DNA of 40,943 nucleotides from a virus (Duplodnaviria; Caudoviricetes), in IMG/VR virus record IMGVR_UViG_3300049924_000109, positions 1 to 40,943 of that record; one strand, written 5' to 3'. A program made the position numbers and the translations under genes. The notes below the pieces were generated by a model, which worked only from the letters and a program-made list of their open reading frames with translations, had not been told where the DNA came from and did no database searches. Positions 19,175 through 39,056 of this stretch are shown here, in pieces. Position 1 is the stretch's first letter. The number at the start of each line of letters is the position of its first letter.

Positions 19175-21334
19175 TTACGGTGCTTGGAAGCCTTGCAGGT
19201 TTGCGTACACTTGCGCCCCAGTGGTTACGCAAGCGATATTCAAAGCGGTCGCCGCTGTTCCCTTTAATGGGGATGGGAAGGCGACGTGAAAGTTTGGTGT
19301 GTTTGCTGGAAGTTGGCAGCGCCACAAAACAGTAGATGCGCCATCCTTAATTACAAATTCAGTCGCAGTGGCGTTTGCGTTTGACAAACTTATTCCGGTC
19401 ACGTAGTTTCTAATCCCCGCCGCACCAGCGGCTCGCGCAACAACATCAGCGGTATTTGTAATGCCGCCAGCCGCCGCCGCATAAGCCCAGTCAAGCTCAG
19501 GGATTGAATACGGCTTTGCAATTTGCGCGCCAACAGTCGTGGTAATAAGGTCAGCAACGTCACCTGAAGCGACTGCTGCGTAATTTGAAGTTACCGCACG
19601 GCCAGCAACCCTAACTGGGCTGCCTGATATTGGTGAATCATGGGCCGTTTGACCGTTTTGTATCGCCGCCGTTGTAACGGTTGTAGAAACAGTAACCGGG
19701 ATTGGAGCATCATTATTAGATGCCCTGTTTATCAGCTCTACTCTTTCACGCTCGTATTGAAACACCCGCGCAAAACTAATTCTAATGTCGGTGCGTTTTA
19801 TAACTGCGCCGCCACAGTTGGTTGATGCAAAGTCGGAAGGCATGGCTACGCCGTCAATTCGCTCCAGCTCAAGCGTGGTTGAGTTGTTATTACGCACTCG
19901 GTATGCGCCATCTACACCAAGCGTAGCACCGTCTGTATTATTTCGCAGTCCAACAACGTTTACATAATCTCCGATCAGATAGGTAGCGCCCCAGCTTGTG
20001 TTGCCAACCAAAGTAAGCACGCCGCTGGACAATGTAGCCGTTGAGCACGCAACGTTTGCAGCGCCGTTAGATGTAATAACAACGCCGCCATTGCAGCGGG
20101 AAATAAAACCCCCGTAGCTTGTCGCAGTGACGGCTGGCCCCCATACCAAAGTAATTGACGTCGCATTTACAACCCCGCCAACTGCGGTTGCTGTCGTGAT
20201 ATTAGGGAAGTTGGTTTGGTCTCGCGTACCGAATATGGTTATTTGATCAGCAGTTGTAAGACCATGCGGGCGGTCAAATACGATTGTCGCTGTTGTTGTG
20301 CCTGTTTTCGTTGCGCTAATAATTTGTGCTGTTGGAGTAGTAAATGATTTATTGTTTACTGCCCTGATCCGCAGCTTATACAGCTTATCTGGCCCCGGAA
20401 CTACTTGTGACCTAATATACCTTAATGATGGGTTTGCAGCCTGATCAATCGGCGAGTCATAAACAGTGACTCGGTCTTGCACAATGTTCAGCCGGTATTC
20501 AGAGGTAGGGGTAAATGCGTATGTGTATGGCGCGTTGATTGCCTGCACAGAACTTGTCGAAGCGCTGCCGATCGAGTGGTTACCTGTTGCCGTTCCACTT
20601 ACTATAGCATCGCCTGATGACCGCCGAATGTAGCACGACATGTTTGTTATTTGCGTGTTGTTGAATATCATCGACACGCCATCTTGCGCATACCCGAGTA
20701 GGCTGCGAAAGAAAACAAAACCTTCAGTAAACGGCCCGGCGTTTACGGATTGAAGGTTGCCACCAGGCCCAGCCGTAACAGTAAACTGATTCGGAGAAGG
20801 AATAGTCGCTACAGTAATTGATGGATAGTTTAATTGGCTGTTGCTTACTCCATAAATTCCAATACTCATGCCCGGAGTGAGGCCGTGAGGCACTGCCGTG
20901 TTGACCGTAAGCGTACTACCAGATTGACTAATGCTGCTAATTGCAATGTCTGAAGGGGCCGCTATTTGATCATCACTTACAACCTCGACCGAAAACTCTT
21001 GCCCTAACGTTCTTTGCGAAATACTAAGTCCAATTGACGCATCAACCGGGATATTAAAGCGGCTGATTGTTTCTATTGCCGAACTGGTGCCAGTTGACAG
21101 CGGGTCTTTTGAAATTACAAGATAGCTAGCGCCGTTTGCGTTACCGTCAACTCGGATAATGTCGCCGCTTGCTTTTGTTTCAGCCCACACGCCACCGGTA
21201 TTAGGGGCATAATTTTCAAAGGCCTCGTGCAGCTTTGTCGCAATGTTTTCCGATGGCGAAATAGCATCGCCACTATCTGGGTCAACAATATAAACGCCGT
21301 CGACGTCGCCTTTAAGCGTTTTTATTTGCGACAT
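19175..21334 (-). CDS. large beta-rich virion protein (putative head fiber/decoration)
   Basis: 719 aa, Thr/Ser/Ala/Gly-rich, repeated T.T....PHGL..G..I.I.G modules; between capsid and adaptor genes. Confidence 0.6.
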   Translation of the reverse strand: MSQIKTLKGDVDGVYIVDPDSGDAISPSENIATKLHEAFENYAPNTGGVWAETKASGDIIRVDGNANGASYLVISKDPLSTGTSSAIETISRFNIPVDASIGLSISQRTLGQEFSVEVVSDDQIAAPSDIAISSISQSGSTLTVNTAVPHGLTPGMSIGIYGVSNSQLNYPSITVATIPSPNQFTVTAGPGGNLQSVNAGPFTEGFVFFRSLLGYAQDGVSMIFNNTQITNMSCYIRRSSGDAIVSGTATGNHSIGSASTSSVQAINAPYTYAFTPTSEYRLNIVQDRVTVYDSPIDQAANPSLRYIRSQVVPGPDKLYKLRIRAVNNKSFTTPTAQIISATKTGTTTATIVFDRPHGLTTADQITIFGTRDQTNFPNITTATAVGGVVNATSITLVWGPAVTATSYGGFISRCNGGVVITSNGAANVACSTATLSSGVLTLVGNTSWGATYLIGDYVNVVGLRNNTDGATLGVDGAYRVRNNNSTTLELERIDGVAMPSDFASTNCGGAVIKRTDIRISFARVFQYERERVELINRASNNDAPIPVTVSTTVTTAAIQNGQTAHDSPISGSPVRVAGRAVTSNYAAVASGDVADLITTTVGAQIAKPYSIPELDWAYAAAAGGITNTADVVARAAGAAGIRNYVTGISLSNANATATEFVIKDGASTVLWRCQLPANTPNFHVAFPSPLKGTAATALNIACVTTGAQVYANLQGFQAP

Positions 21335-24114: not shown

Positions 24115-24154
24115 CATTTAGCAAATTCTATCCATGCGGCATACCGTGTCAAAT

Positions 24155-25966
24155 TTATTCATCAGGCAGCAAAAGCTCAGCGCGGCACCTGCAATTGTGT
24201 ATAATCAGGCTGTCACTCGTATACCATGAGTGCAAAGTCTGGAGATTATATACATGGGCGTACGTGTTTTCACTGTCGAACTTCTCGCTAACGCGAAGCG
24301 CATTTTTAATGAAGCCAACGGCGGTAAAAGTATTTCCGAAGTTGCCAATTTTCTCGGGTGCAATCCTACAAACCTCCGAAAGGCGCTCGGCATTGCTGGA
24401 TACACAATCCCGCGATTCAGACAGCCGATACACAACCGAAAACAATTGCCTATTGATGAATTGGTTGCAAAATATGCTACTGGACAAAGCGAACTTGCTT
24501 TGTCCAAAGAATACCAATGCAGCCGGGATGTGATACGCCGCCGCCTTATCGAAGGCGGTGCAGATATTAGAAATGGCAGCCAGGCGAATCTCATCCGAAT
24601 GGCTAGACTCACGGTTGATGAGCGAAAGCAGCTTACAAAATCCGCGAACAACGCAATCCGAGGAGTACCAGAGCCTAAAAGCAGAAAGCGCAAGCGGTCG
24701 ATTAATACTGAACTCGGTATTGCTCAATATGTTATCGGCCACGGCGAAAAAGAGTTCTCCGAGAGGCTTAATGAACTCGGAATTCAACATGTCAGGCAAA
24801 AATCCGTCGATGTTTATAGTCTGGACTTCGCTATCAATGGCATCGCCGTTGAACTCAAAGCCGGGAAGTGTCTTCGAAGTGTCAAAGCCGACGTAGCTAG
24901 AAATAGAGTCAAAAATCTGGCCAATTTGAATTGGCGCTGCTTGTATATCGTTTTTGAAACCGTAGAAGCCCTCATTGCTAGTGCTGAACAAATAATCGCC
25001 CACATTGACGTTTTGAATGGGCTGCCATCCCCTGTTAGTCAATATCGGGTGATTAATTGTCGCTTCGATACTTTTGCCACTCTCCGTGATGAGCGTGGTT
25101 GCTTTTACTGTGTTAGTACGCCTCCACAGCTTAGAACAACCGTGCGCGACTTCGATGTTTGAGTGATAAGGTAGACAGCGTATCGGCGTCCCGGGGTGCC
25201 CTACTGCTGGCGGCTTATCCCAGCTAAACACTCGCCCCTCTAAATCTGCGTGCTCAGGCCGGACGCGGCTATCGTTTACTGTTCGCCAAATATACTCACG
25301 CACACCGATGGACTCGGCCCTGATTCTAGTTATTCTGGCATTCGCGCTCAATATCTGGTCTTGCGCAATAAGCGTAGCCCTGTTCTTTGTCACGTCGAAT
25401 TGAGCTTGTATCTGGTCGCTTATTTGCTTGACAGAATTCCCGCCAAATACGCCGTTTTGAATAATCGTGGTCAATCTCTCGTGGTATTGAGTCCCTATTG
25501 ACTTCACCAGCGACACATTCTGCTGCACCCACACGGCCTGCAAATCTTTAATCCACGGCTCGCCACGGTATAGGTCAACCGATAGCGGCGATGGTCTTGC
25601 ACCGGCTATAGCTGGAGGCAATTCTTTTCCAGTTGCGGCCTTTACTGCAAGAATTAGCGCCCGGTCGTTATTCTTTGCCAGTAGCGTGAAAATTCCCGGT
25701 AATTTTGCCTCTACGATGCCGGTAGATAGTGCTATCGAGTCAAGGAAAGCCGCAAGGATAACGGCTATATCGTCGACGTAGCTATCGGCCTTAATCTCGC
25801 CTGACTTCACCAGTCCATGCAGCTTTGGCAATACTATCTTCTTTGTGCTTGCTGCCAACTGCCGAACGTACCATTGCAGCAGGCGTATATATTCCCGCTC
25901 GGCTTGGTCTGGCGGCTTTAGCTCGGCTGTCTTAGGCTTCTTCACCATTATCTTCGCCGGTTTCAA
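24155..25966 (-). CDS. head morphogenesis protein (SPP1 gp7 / MuF family), intein-containing
   Basis: RATLIAQDQ, YIWRTVNDSRVRPEH, GHPG.PIR//CRC motifs; 275-aa extein after removal of the intein. Confidence 0.92.
   Translation of the reverse strand: MKPAKIMVKKPKTAELKPPDQAEREYIRLLQWYVRQLAASTKKIVLPKLHGLVKSGEIKADSYVDDIAVILAAFLDSIALSTGIVEAKLPGIFTLLAKNNDRALILAVKAATGKELPPAIAGARPSPLSVDLYRGEPWIKDLQAVWVQQNVSLVKSIGTQYHERLTTIIQNGVFGGNSVKQISDQIQAQFDVTKNRATLIAQDQILSANARITRIRAESIGVREYIWRTVNDSRVRPEHADLEGRVFSWDKPPAVGHPGTPIRCLPYHSNIEVAHGCSKLWRRTNTVKATTLITESGKSIEATINHPILTNRGWQPIQNVNVGDYLFSTSNEGFYGFKNDIQAAPIQIGQIFDSISSYVGFDTSKTLPGFEFNGDAIDSEVQTINIDGFLPDMLNSEFIKPLGELFFAVADNILSNTEFSINRPLALSAFRLWYSSDCVVRGFCKLLSLINRESSHSDEIRLAAISNICTAFDKAAAYHIPAALVFFGQSKFALSSSIFCNQFINRQLFSVVYRLSESRDCVSSNAERLSEVCRIAPEKIGNFGNTFTAVGFIKNALRVSEKFDSENTYAHVYNLQTLHSWYTSDSLIIHNCRCRAELLLPDE
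24194..25177 (-). mobile_element. intein, 328 aa
   Basis: starts CLPYHS (block A), ATINHPILTNRGW (block B TxxH), VYNLQT (block F), ends IIHN followed by Cys+1; splicing restores PIR-CRC. Confidence 0.92.
24254..25162 (+). CDS. putative homing endonuclease (2x HTH + Vsr/DUF559-like PD-(D/E)xK nuclease), antisense inside the intein
   Basis: GGAGA RBS at 24241-24245, 8 nt before ATG; two HTH-like repeats; E..F...L...GI...RQ..V..YSLDFAINGIAVELK...NW.CLYI nuclease pattern. Confidence 0.75.
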   Translation: MGVRVFTVELLANAKRIFNEANGGKSISEVANFLGCNPTNLRKALGIAGYTIPRFRQPIHNRKQLPIDELVAKYATGQSELALSKEYQCSRDVIRRRLIEGGADIRNGSQANLIRMARLTVDERKQLTKSANNAIRGVPEPKSRKRKRSINTELGIAQYVIGHGEKEFSERLNELGIQHVRQKSVDVYSLDFAINGIAVELKAGKCLRSVKADVARNRVKNLANLNWRCLYIVFETVEALIASAEQIIAHIDVLNGLPSPVSQYRVINCRFDTFATLRDERGCFYCVSTPPQLRTTVRDFDV

Positions 25967-29303: not shown

Positions 29304-29724
29304 CTTTTGCGGCTAGCAATTCGCGGCGTGCGGCGCTCGATAGCTTTGTGACATCCAAGGTCGTGGTAATGGCTGCCTCAATTTGATGCTTCGTCGGCTC
29401 GTTATACCCGTGCATGGCGTTCAGCTCTTTAACGGCCCCAGTCATGCCGCTAGCGTTGGTCTGTTCCTTGGCTACCTTGTAAGCCTCTACAAGCGCCCTG
29501 ACGCTCATTTCACGTGTCCAAAGGGCCTTTTTTTCCAGCTTGCTACGCAACTCTTGCACCCTACCCGATACCGCCCCGTCAGACATAAGCTCACTTGCGC
29601 GCTTATGGATTGTCTCTGCCTTCATGTTTTCAGCATTAAAGGCCGTCCGGTATGCGTCCGCCTGGCTCATGCCATCAGCGATGCAGGATGCGAATTTTTC
29701 TTGCTTAGGGGTTAGTGCCGTCAT
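29290..29724 (-). CDS. terS: terminase small subunit
   Basis: LTPKQEKFA...SQADAYR HTH N-terminus; overlaps terL start. Confidence 0.88.
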   Translation of the reverse strand: MTALTPKQEKFASCIADGMSQADAYRTAFNAENMKAETIHKRASELMSDGAVSGRVQELRSKLEKKALWTREMSVRALVEAYKVAKEQTNASGMTGAVKELNAMHGYNEPTKHQIEAAITTTLDVTKLSSAARRELLAAKDAAD

Positions 29725-30401
29725 GATGCAGCATCAGAATAATGGAGCGCGTCGGTCGGTACTGCCCCGCCCAGCTCCGAGGGGGTCTCGGAGTCCTGCT
29801 TTTTGACACGCTTAGGATATGGCTTTGCTAGTGCTGCAATTTTATCACGCATTGCCGAATCAAGAGGCATAAGGTATTTGTGCTTCCACATAACCGGGCT
29901 TTTTTCCATGCCCTTGATTGTTCCAAACAAGGCGTTTGCAGTTCGCTTGTGCATCACTTTGCCGTTATACATTACCTCACATTGAGCTTGTAATGCGCCA
30001 GTGTAAACCCAGCCAGCGGCCTGATAAACACCGCCATGATGGCCTTGCAGTGGATCGGCATAACTCACAATCAAACGCAAACCGGGCGAGTTTTTTTGCA
30101 GGAACCTCATCGCGATTGACATAACACGGCTTACCGCTGTTTTGTGCCGCGTCATTGCGATTCGTGTCAATTCACAAACCTGCGTTTGGTCAAGTTGATA
30201 CGGCGAACCAAGATTGTTGTTAGCGCCGCGTGAAAACAATACGACGCCTATAAATTTTCCATTCTCCCACACGCCAACCTTAACAATTTTCCCAGCCGGC
30301 AGGCATTGGCTGTAGTGCCACTTCTCACAAGCAAACTTTGCAGCCTCATGGGTTGCCCAATCGATTTTCAGAATCGGTTTATTTGTGGAATTCATGGCCA
30401 C
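29721..30401 (-). CDS. Mom-like DNA adenine modification enzyme (GNAT fold)
   Basis: HYS...GVWENGKFIGVVLF...ELTRIA...IVSYAD..QGHHGGVYQAAGWVYTG...KHKY...PYPK resembles phage Mu Mom family. Confidence 0.8.
   Translation of the reverse strand: MAMNSTNKPILKIDWATHEAAKFACEKWHYSQCLPAGKIVKVGVWENGKFIGVVLFSRGANNNLGSPYQLDQTQVCELTRIAMTRHKTAVSRVMSIAMRFLQKNSPGLRLIVSYADPLQGHHGGVYQAAGWVYTGALQAQCEVMYNGKVMHKRTANALFGTIKGMEKSPVMWKHKYLMPLDSAMRDKIAALAKPYPKRVKKQDSETPSELGGAVPTDALHYSDAAS
29743..29811 (-). ncRNA. tRNA-Gly-like element lacking a D-arm, inside the mom 3' end
   Basis: 7-bp acceptor GCGUGUC/GACGCGC + U + CCA; 6-bp stem with 7-nt loop centred on CCC; imperfect T-like arm. Confidence 0.55.
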
Positions 30402-38159: not shown

Positions 38160-39056
38160 TTACCCTTGGTTTTGTGTTAGCAGTCGCCAAGCTGCGGCGC
38201 GGCACTGTGGGACTTGCCCATTTCCAATGGCTTTAAGTCGGTGTGTCCTATGGGCCACCCCATCAGTTGTTCTACCCAACTCGGATTCAGTAGACCACCA
38301 GCTTGTGCCGCCAGTGTTGGTGTATTGCGTAGGGCCTCCGAAGGTGCATTTGTTTCTTTTGAGTTGTGCGCTGTCGGTGTCGGCCACATCTTTACCACAG
38401 TGGCAAGACCGTCCCCACTGGTTGCACTGGCACCCTTGCGGTTGTAATTCCCGCAGACTGTTGGCGTGGGCCAAAGTTGCTTTCTTGCCATCAATGCCAG
38501 CGTCGGGCGCGGCTTCCCGCCGATTGATGTATTGATTCTCCCCGAGCCTGCATCCATTGCTACGGGAGTGGGCAAGAATCCAGATTCTGTTCCTTTTGTG
38601 ATGCGCCCCAACATCGGCAGCTCCCAGCACTGTCCATTTAGCATCAAACCCGAGCGCGGCAAGGTCACTGAGCACCCTGTCCAATCCTCTACTAACGAGA
38701 GCTGGGCTGTTTTCAATGAATGCGAATCTCGGTCGTACTTCGCCAATGATGCGCGCCATCTCCCGCCAGAGTCCACTACGCTCTCCGTCCAGTCCGTCGC
38801 CTCTGCCTGCAACTGATATGTCTTGGCACGGGAAGCCTCCAGAAACAACGTCAACAATTCCGCACCACGGTTTCCCGTCAAAGGTTCGCACGTCATCCCA
38901 AACCGGGAAAGGCGGGAATACTCCGTTGGCTTGTCTGGCCAGTAATACTGATCTGGCGTATGCGTCAAATTCGACTGCACAGACGGTACGGTGTCCAAGG
39001 AGCTGCCCCCCAAGAATGCCGCCACCAGCTCCGGCGAAAAGCTCCAACTCATTCAT
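38160..39056 (-). CDS. C5 cytosine DNA methyltransferase, alpha polypeptide
   Basis: LFAGAGG (I), GGFPCQD (IV), ENS (VI), HKRNRIW (VIII), RLKAIGNGQV (X); motif IX absent. Confidence 0.9.
   Translation of the reverse strand: MNELELFAGAGGGILGGQLLGHRTVCAVEFDAYARSVLLARQANGVFPPFPVWDDVRTFDGKPWCGIVDVVSGGFPCQDISVAGRGDGLDGERSGLWREMARIIGEVRPRFAFIENSPALVSRGLDRVLSDLAALGFDAKWTVLGAADVGAHHKRNRIWILAHSRSNGCRLGENQYINRREAAPDAGIDGKKATLAHANSLRELQPQGCQCNQWGRSCHCGKDVADTDSAQLKRNKCTFGGPTQYTNTGGTSWWSTESELGRTTDGVAHRTHRLKAIGNGQVPQCRAAAWRLLTQNQG
38177..39052 (-). CDS. C5 methyltransferase beta polypeptide (TRD repeats + motif IX) in overlapping frame
   Basis: 291-aa open frame with three (L/W)PTP repeats and LNPSWVEQLMGWPIGHT (motif IX-like). 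Confidence 0.7.
   Translation of the reverse strand: MSWSFSPELVAAFLGGSSLDTVPSVQSNLTHTPDQYYWPDKPTEYSRLSRFGMTCEPLTGNRGAELLTLFLEASRAKTYQLQAEATDWTESVVDSGGRWRASLAKYDRDSHSLKTAQLSLVEDWTGCSVTLPRSGLMLNGQCWELPMLGRITKGTESGFLPTPVAMDAGSGRINTSIGGKPRPTLALMARKQLWPTPTVCGNYNRKGASATSGDGLATVVKMWPTPTAHNSKETNAPSEALRNTPTLAAQAGGLLNPSWVEQLMGWPIGHTDLKPLEMGKSHSAAPQLGDC

Follow-up and report, generated by a model that had tools for sequence, protein, structure and literature searches.

The opposite strand of a MuF intein encodes what is very probably a separate, conserved Vsr-like homing endonuclease, which would cut intein-free MuF alleles and so bring about copying of the whole element into them. The window, i.e., the whole stretch of DNA analysed, is a 40.9-kb virus record (40,943 nucleotides) with a myovirus gene set on its minus strand, where PHROGs profiles identify terminase, portal, MuF, protease, major head, tail sheath, and baseplate genes; its best-matching sequencing runs are labelled as freshwater sediment or riverine metagenomes. 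The intein-bearing MuF gene is flanked by the portal gene on one side and the head maturation protease gene on the other (PHROGs), and the features of this locus are collected in Table 1.

Table 1. Features of the MuF gene, its intein, and the antisense gene, in window coordinates.
Feature	Position	Strand	Remarks
MuF / SPP1 gp7-like minor head (head morphogenesis) gene	24155..25948	-	597 aa including intein (P0158); PF04233 E 1.9e-17
Class 1 intein, 328 aa	24194..25177 (runs 25177 to 24194)	-	inserted at PIR|CRC in MuF; splicing predicted
N-terminal Hint region, residues 1-100, blocks A and B	24878..25177	-	opposite strand is C-terminal part of nuclease; pLDDT 90-97 over 1-60
Central insert, residues ~130-290	24308..24790	-	sense-strand shadow of antisense gene; block pLDDT 37-59
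C-terminal Hint region, blocks F and G	24194..24307	-	pLDDT 89-94 (291-328); opposite strand holds nuclease start codon, SD, and -10-like hexamer
Antisense ORF, 302 aa, predicted Vsr-like homing endonuclease	24254..25162	+	ATG 24254, TGA 25160-25162
Two helix-turn-helix (HTH) modules, residues ~8-47 and 67-100	24275..24553	+	predicted DNA binding; helices in model; HTH fold matches Z 5-6.7
Vsr/DUF559-like nuclease domain, residues ~160-256	24731..25021	+	E165, Q182, D191, E200, K202, R218; no His at 207
C-terminal tail, residues 257-302	25022..25159	+	long beta-hairpin in model; antisense to intein blocks A and B
Shine-Dalgarno (SD)-like GGAGA	24241-24245	+	8 nt before ATG; opposite block F Asn-Leu-Gln codons
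TATAAT, candidate -10 without -35	24200-24205	+	reverse complement of Ile-Ile codons

Elsewhere in the window, the PF00145 match of a C5 cytosine methyltransferase ORF (38160-39056, minus strand) covers only profile positions 1-169, and a 291-aa ORF in another frame of that strand (38177-39052) overlaps it, with WPTP repeats and the ending LNPSWVEQLMGWP. It looks as though this second, out-of-frame polypeptide may supply the C-terminal motifs of the methyltransferase, presumably in the two-polypeptide manner of M.EcoHK31I. A Mom-family protein (29721-30401; PF25680, E 2e-43) adjoins the small terminase, and two ORFs of 350 aa (514-1566) and 719 aa (19175-21334) had no Pfam or PHROG match.

By its motifs and Hint fold, the insertion is a class 1 intein for which splicing is predicted. 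The splicing blocks listed in the initial annotation are all present, i.e., C1 (at 25177), T40-I-N-H43, block F (HVYNL), and H327-N328 followed by C+1, with the junction reading PIR|C...HN|CRC; C1, T40, H43, and N328 are unchanged in 59/59 aligned inteins. The 328 residues alone match the Intein_splicing profile PF14890 at E 2.6e-6, a match below the Pfam cut-off. Both ends of the intein model are confident and its centre is poor (pLDDT ~90-97, 37-59, and 89-94 in succession), in keeping with the earlier description of the middle as filler, and nearly all Foldseek matches listed for the model are Hint domains, inteins being at the top (best E 4.7e-3). The central insert carries neither LAGLIDADG nor HNH, and no in-frame homing endonuclease (HEN) was recognisable there by Pfam, model, or Foldseek. 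PF04233 occurs in 51 of the 64 intein homologues by table count, most of the inteins being inserted at the same x|CRC-type site, and MuF alleles without the intein exist in relatives; the insertion is in-frame, and the host gene also occurs without it. The sense-strand tetrad FHGD hardly varies among the aligned inteins, but it was not accepted as a splicing motif because its codons are those of the nuclease's (I/V)AVE200 in reverse complement. Related inteins also lie in proteins with helicase, Phage_min_cap2, and portal domains (P0200, P0205, and P0219).

The antisense ORF is codon-aligned with this intein and bounded by two in-frame stops, its own TGA and a second TGA upstream at 24227, both within the intein as had been annotated; its ATG lies opposite the His308 codon and its stop opposite the Ser6 codon. 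Among 20,000 synonymous recodings of the intein, none had a stop-free antisense stretch of at least 302 codons (median 67, maximum 265). In 13 other window genes the longest antisense open stretch does not exceed 149 codons, and the antisense of the MuF N-extein is interrupted by 10 stops over 257 codons.

By tblastn, the antisense protein is encoded in 97 phage records, in most cases where a head protein is annotated, and it has relatives in phages of Salmonella, Escherichia, Klebsiella, Edwardsiella, Vibrio, Aggregatibacter, and Helicobacter. Twenty-six loci from about 13 lineages were parsed, 5 of which came from the intein query only; 25 have complete inteins, and one (L015) ends at a contig edge. 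In 25/25 complete inteins the codon-aligned antisense frame is open over at least 253 codons and stops at intein residue 2-16, and none of these 25 combines antisense stops with a conserved sense insert. DNA searches for the window's closest relatives returned, from viral contigs, one distant locus (for the window protein), none (for alignment A2), and one partial locus (for P0010), and from metagenome contigs no loci; dN/dS was therefore measured on pairs of public phages (n = 16; equal length, gap-free comparison), which are non-independent and do not include the window's own element. In the centre, the antisense frame has a dN/dS of 0.06-0.27 in 15/16 pairs, compared with 0.51-1.58 for the intein frame; the exception (L025/L026, with 4 differences) gives 0.90 for the antisense frame and an undefined sense value. 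Relatives without the active-site His discussed below likewise show an antisense dN/dS of ~0.1. Over six pooled pairs, the changes at intein codon positions 1/2/3 come to 292/87/161 for the centre and 43/11/52 for the N-terminal splicing region. Selection in the centre acts on the antisense frame, and in the N-terminal splicing region it constrains both frames; the comparison of strands across homologous inteins that had been proposed as a check thus found the antisense frame conserved and the sense insert relaxed. One strand carries the splicing motifs and the other a conserved, folded nuclease, in support of the dual coding put forward in the initial annotation; the observation as first described is confirmed.

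A profile built from 7 homologues and run against 1.84 billion representatives recovers a family of 941 clusters at E<=1e-30, weaker matches, with plain HTH proteins among them, being left uncounted. The family alignment (n = 135) comprises the window protein, 5/6 initial homologues, and 129 of the 150 matches listed; relatives of the same length are intact at 97, 85, 76, and 58% identity. HTH_23 is found in 71/135 members, HTH_7 in 62/135, MTES_1575 in 58/135, and DUF559 in 28/135. For the window protein alone, Pfam matches are weak (MTES_1575 E 0.057, DUF559 E 0.15), so that the nuclease assignment draws on the family profile and the fold; phmmer with this single protein against PDB sequences returned no matches, nor did PHROGs. 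The family profile matches 3HRL (E 1.8e-6) and 3R3P, i.e., I-Bth0305I (E 2.8e-5), in the PDB. AlphaFold models the antisense protein with confidence (pLDDT 96.1, pTM 0.74) as a pair of HTHs followed by a helical linker, an alpha/beta nuclease, and a tail in the form of a beta-hairpin, whose strands (263-278 and 284-301) have pLDDT >90. The top VIA folds are Vsr 1CW0 (Z 9.3, rmsd 3.7, 112 aligned), NGO0050 3HRL (Z 8.7), and 3R3P (Z 8.3), Z values that are modest and barely over the noise level of the tool, and they agree with the two HTHs and Vsr/DUF559-like nuclease initially assigned from the letters alone. Foldseek gave no match at E<=0.001 for either the antisense or the intein model, with 3R3P at rank 9 and 1CW0 at rank 17 for the former; SurE, which fills its top rows, was rejected for low TM and high rmsd. 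Structure prediction on both frames, as had been suggested, consequently set an antisense nuclease-fold match against a poorly modelled sense insert with no folded endonuclease.

As modelled, the nuclease has a restriction-endonuclease-like alpha/beta core with conserved E, D, and E, for which catalysis is predicted. D191 and E200 are conserved in 135/135 sequences, as is R/K218, E165 in 134/135, and Q182 in 132/135; E165 and D191 align to the first Glu and the metal-binding Asp of 3R3P. The column of the EDxHD His (H213 of I-Bth0305I) holds Leu207 in the window protein and His in 41/135, which keeps the window protein out of the EDxHD class even though it is modelled with a Vsr-like fold and would work as a homing nuclease. 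For the second EDxHD Asp (D222), D213 lies nearby where the alignment is gapped, and Asp occupies the column in 15/135. K202 gives the window protein an E-x-K (E200, K202), with Lys at that column in 30/135, which we take to resemble PD-(D/E)xK enzymes. With the His missing and the second Asp lacking a clear alignment, the active-site chemistry is uncertain.

The expression signals proposed for the antisense gene, an SD before the ATG and a TATAAT formed by the intein's Ile-Ile codons, are both present as described (Table 1). Compared with recodings, both are within chance for the window alone (-10 p 0.15, SD p 0.34), and a consensus scan of the window gave no plus-strand promoter or full sigma-70 site. 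Across lineages, the ATG is opposite the first His codon of block F in 13/13 (product of recoding probabilities 4e-6), and in one further locus the His codon CAC yields a GTG start. SD-like matches are enriched over the 13 lineages (Fisher p 0.002), being absent in L001 and weakest in the window among several relatives; -10-like matches are weakly enriched (p 0.016), with a score of 0 in three lineages, and several have TG-TATAAT-like motifs ~45 nt upstream. At the other end of the gene, nuclease residues 269 (C/G/S/R) and 266 (V/M) are limited in 132/135 members to what the block B Thr and His codons allow when read in antisense, from which nearly all of the sampled family would be intein-embedded now or recently. 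Two sigma-70-like sites point along the minus strand, i.e., a strong one (TTGACA-16-TAGAAT, 11/12; 24125-24152) just past the MuF stop and toward the protease gene, and a second (24245-24273) built from the block F Tyr-Asn codons. Public annotation of such loci is uneven: the Snoke record (L011, MK931441.1, 1202-1831) has its MuF intein annotated and no opposite-strand gene listed, and in vB_StyS-sam (L022) the antisense gene is annotated only as a 402-base piece.

Homing, as opposed to mere residence, is best followed in relatives. The sidste MuF gene is matched over at least 80% of its length by 69/501 phage records, and in 49 of the 60 sidste MuF rows listed across the ranking the match comes in two pieces without the intein. 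Extein and nuclease dS diverge strongly in sidste/Snoke (1.71/0.16) and P12620-1/RCIP0015 (0.62/0.06), as in three further pairs (1.13/0.14, 0.80/0.11, and 0.33/0.01), and are about equal in three Gordonia pairs (0.29/0.26, 0.31/0.34, and 0.50/0.55), which give no sign of recent transfer. Double coding by itself lowers dS; the equal-dS Gordonia pairs suggest that a tenfold drop goes beyond what double coding alone would produce. For the window itself, loose ends in sequencing runs X1, which is possibly its source, and X4 diverge from the reference at the junction or close to it and read by eye as intein-free alleles ending CRCRSE. Coexisting empty and occupied alleles, together with an extein dS far above the nuclease dS in several pairs, thus support homing-like spread in relatives, as the homing claim would have it. 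Among Gordonia phages, L007/L008/L017 and L013/L019 have different inteins (316 vs 275 aa) at the same MuF site, both types with an antisense nuclease of their own and in nearly identical exteins (extein dN ~0.005).

Three of 83 related Acinetobacter phage records have a free-standing copy of the gene. In phage IME285 (L006 455-1348, MH853786.1), this homologue is annotated, converges with an intein-free MuF, and has many stops in its antisense frame. A comparison with AbP2 shows no difference in the flank before the insertion; MuF identity is 85-98% except over roughly the final 200 bases, where it falls to 65-70% and the intein site changes from INCRC to PMCKC. The free-standing protein retains the beta-tail, and the 13 bases before its ATG match those of an intein-borne relative at 10 (by eye). 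It clusters with P0037 and P0093 (SH-aLRT 99), both of which, like it, are without part of the block B fingerprint, and that cluster nests inside intein-borne members in midpoint-rooted trees with no outgroup (deeper branches 81-89). Although hmmsearch matched the intein profile to the free-standing gene's antisense strand (E 6e-27), this was set aside as evidence of descent, since the antisense of any homologue would match the filler. Free-standing phage endonucleases home along with a resistant allele; likewise, the Acinetobacter copy has likely shed its intein and would home with the resistant MuF 3' end. Were it instead a surviving ancestral free gene, the likeness of tail and leader would have to be coincidental.

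The proposed cycle begins with what is observed, i.e., two open, codon-aligned frames on opposite strands, the antisense one selected in the centre and both selected in the N-terminal splicing region. The class 1 motifs and Hint model suggest that the 328-aa intein, filler included, would splice from the MuF precursor and restore PIR-CRC. The nuclease would be translated from its own antisense mRNA, as its start codon and SD indicate, using signals within the codons of blocks F and G. Such an mRNA might, as the initial annotation proposed, uncouple nuclease expression from that of the late head genes. Its HTH pair would read the target and, as predicted from the fold and acidic residues, the nuclease would cut the DNA of a co-infecting phage close to its empty R|CRC junction. 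Recombination repair, which is established as the means by which homing elements are copied, would then copy the whole element, a step that the divergence patterns in relatives support.

Other readings of the same locus can be set against this one. Codon-aligned antisense frames are the commonest class of long ORFs to arise by chance, and the ORF could accordingly be a chance shadow of the intein frame; there is next to no probability of this, given that in the centre it is the antisense frame that is conserved and folded, that no recoding out of 20,000 reproduces it, and that the dN/dS asymmetry contradicts it. The nuclease might also be made by another route, i.e., by read-through from a distant plus-strand promoter or after DNA inversion, for which the lack of a canonical promoter within the window would speak; this is unlikely, as the SD and ATG positions are kept over 13 lineages, TG-TATAAT-like motifs recur upstream in several of them, and no inverted form appeared among the joints examined in sequencing runs.

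The remaining alternatives accept the gene and doubt the homing. It is improbable that the antisense protein is made and selected yet no longer homes, acting as a DNA-binding regulator or anti-competitor nuclease for which the intein is a safe harbour: the missing EDxHD His and the two HTHs would suit such a role, as would the pairs that look vertically inherited and the persistence of a free-standing copy without the intein, but the catalytic-type E, D, and E are near-invariant over 135 sequences, near-identical elements sit in diverged exteins, and the free-standing copy arrives with a MuF rewritten at the insertion site, as expected of a site-specific cutter. We hold it to be very improbable that the family homes and the window's copy is decaying or silent. 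Such decay would be in line with the absent -35, the lack of a plus-strand promoter call, an SD that is the weakest among several relatives, and the absent His; against it stand the full-length frame, the intact same-length relatives down to 58% identity, the low dN/dS of His-less relatives, and the empty alleles in the same samples. We thus retain a separate homing endonuclease gene on the intein's opposite strand as the preferred explanation.

Beyond the window, we lean, with some reserve, toward one large and old MuF intein family whose splicing motifs double as nuclease signals, and from which the nuclease escaped intein-free in the three Acinetobacter phages. Under this broader reading, the block F His would serve as the start codon and the codons next to it as the ribosome-binding site, and block B would be overprinted by the folded beta tail. 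If true, the passage from intein-borne to free-standing would run counter to the direction published so far, where an intein is invaded by a free-standing nuclease, and would mark a likely route by which intein-borne homing genes become free-standing ones. New here is the quantitative evidence for the antisense frame as the selected gene, hidden as it is under 'head morphogenesis' annotations in 97 records. The locus would further be a natural instance in which the same codons, read on opposite strands, specify two folded beta-structures, and would add a His-less Vsr-like active site; E. coli phage Snoke and Gordonia terrae phage Vivi2 are tractable systems with empty and occupied alleles.

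The initial annotation knew of no described example of such an element; antisense VSR-like HENs in full phage inteins had, however, already been described in actinobacterial phages by Gosselin, Arsenault, and Gogarten (bioRxiv 10.1101/2025.01.02.630785), who report the same structural matches, 1CW0 and 3R3P. The architecture is known mostly from that one preprint and is found here to be far more widespread. Among openly accessible papers and preprint main texts, our literature search found the antisense VSR arrangement only there and found neither the block F start codon nor the escaped copy; the word 'promoter' is absent from the preprint's main text. Like the window's intein, those of Gosselin and colleagues are full inteins with an unfolded in-frame middle and a separate antisense ORF that matches 1CW0 and 3R3P and has a long helical N-terminal part (bioRxiv 10.1101/2025.01.02.630785), and minor capsid (IPR006528) inteins are given as all non-canonical in that source. 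Unlike their actinobacterial phages, the window's host is a myovirus of freshwater sediment-type samples, with relatives in phages from Salmonella to Helicobacter; the window protein also matches the MuF genes of Gordonia phages Vivi2, Fosterous, Affeca, and Angelicage at ~30% identity. A contiguous intein, no in-frame HEN, and a 1CW0/3R3P-like antisense model mean that the window element, as modelled, fits the category 'intein with anti-sense VSR-like HEN'.

Among characterised enzymes, the predicted nuclease is close in layout to I-Bth0305I, a phage element of the EDxHD HENs, in which the His is the presumed general base and a homodimer cuts a pseudopalindrome beside the insertion site (Taylor et al. 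2011, PMC3239194). Both proteins have N-terminal DNA-binding modules and a C-terminal Vsr-like nuclease with the aligned E and D, and I-Bth0305I cuts beside its own insertion site, as is predicted of the window element. I-Bth0305I differs in being group I intron-encoded, with NUMOD-like N-terminal signatures and the His and second Asp (PMC3239194), in place of which the window protein carries HTHs, Leu where the His would be, and E-x-K; a beta tail of 45 residues comes in addition. In the fractured genes of Dassa et al. 2009 (PMC2677866), a Vsr-like nuclease is likewise an ORF of its own with its own expression signals, lying between intein halves; those split inteins are two genes, whereas the window's intein is one contiguous frame through the whole of the opposite-strand nuclease gene. 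The lineage of the nuclease is defined by these two studies, Dassa et al. 2009 and Taylor et al. 2011. Finally, antisense LAGLIDADG inteins (Gorbalenya 1998 and Gogarten 2002, cited by bioRxiv 10.1101/2025.01.02.630785) and the ShiLan element (PMC11855218) share with the window a homing nuclease in another frame of an in-frame insertion; they differ in the nucleases themselves, LAGLIDADG and HNH, and the ShiLan element is described without a recognised splicing domain, in contrast to the class 1 intein that the window's nuclease gene would share its codons with.
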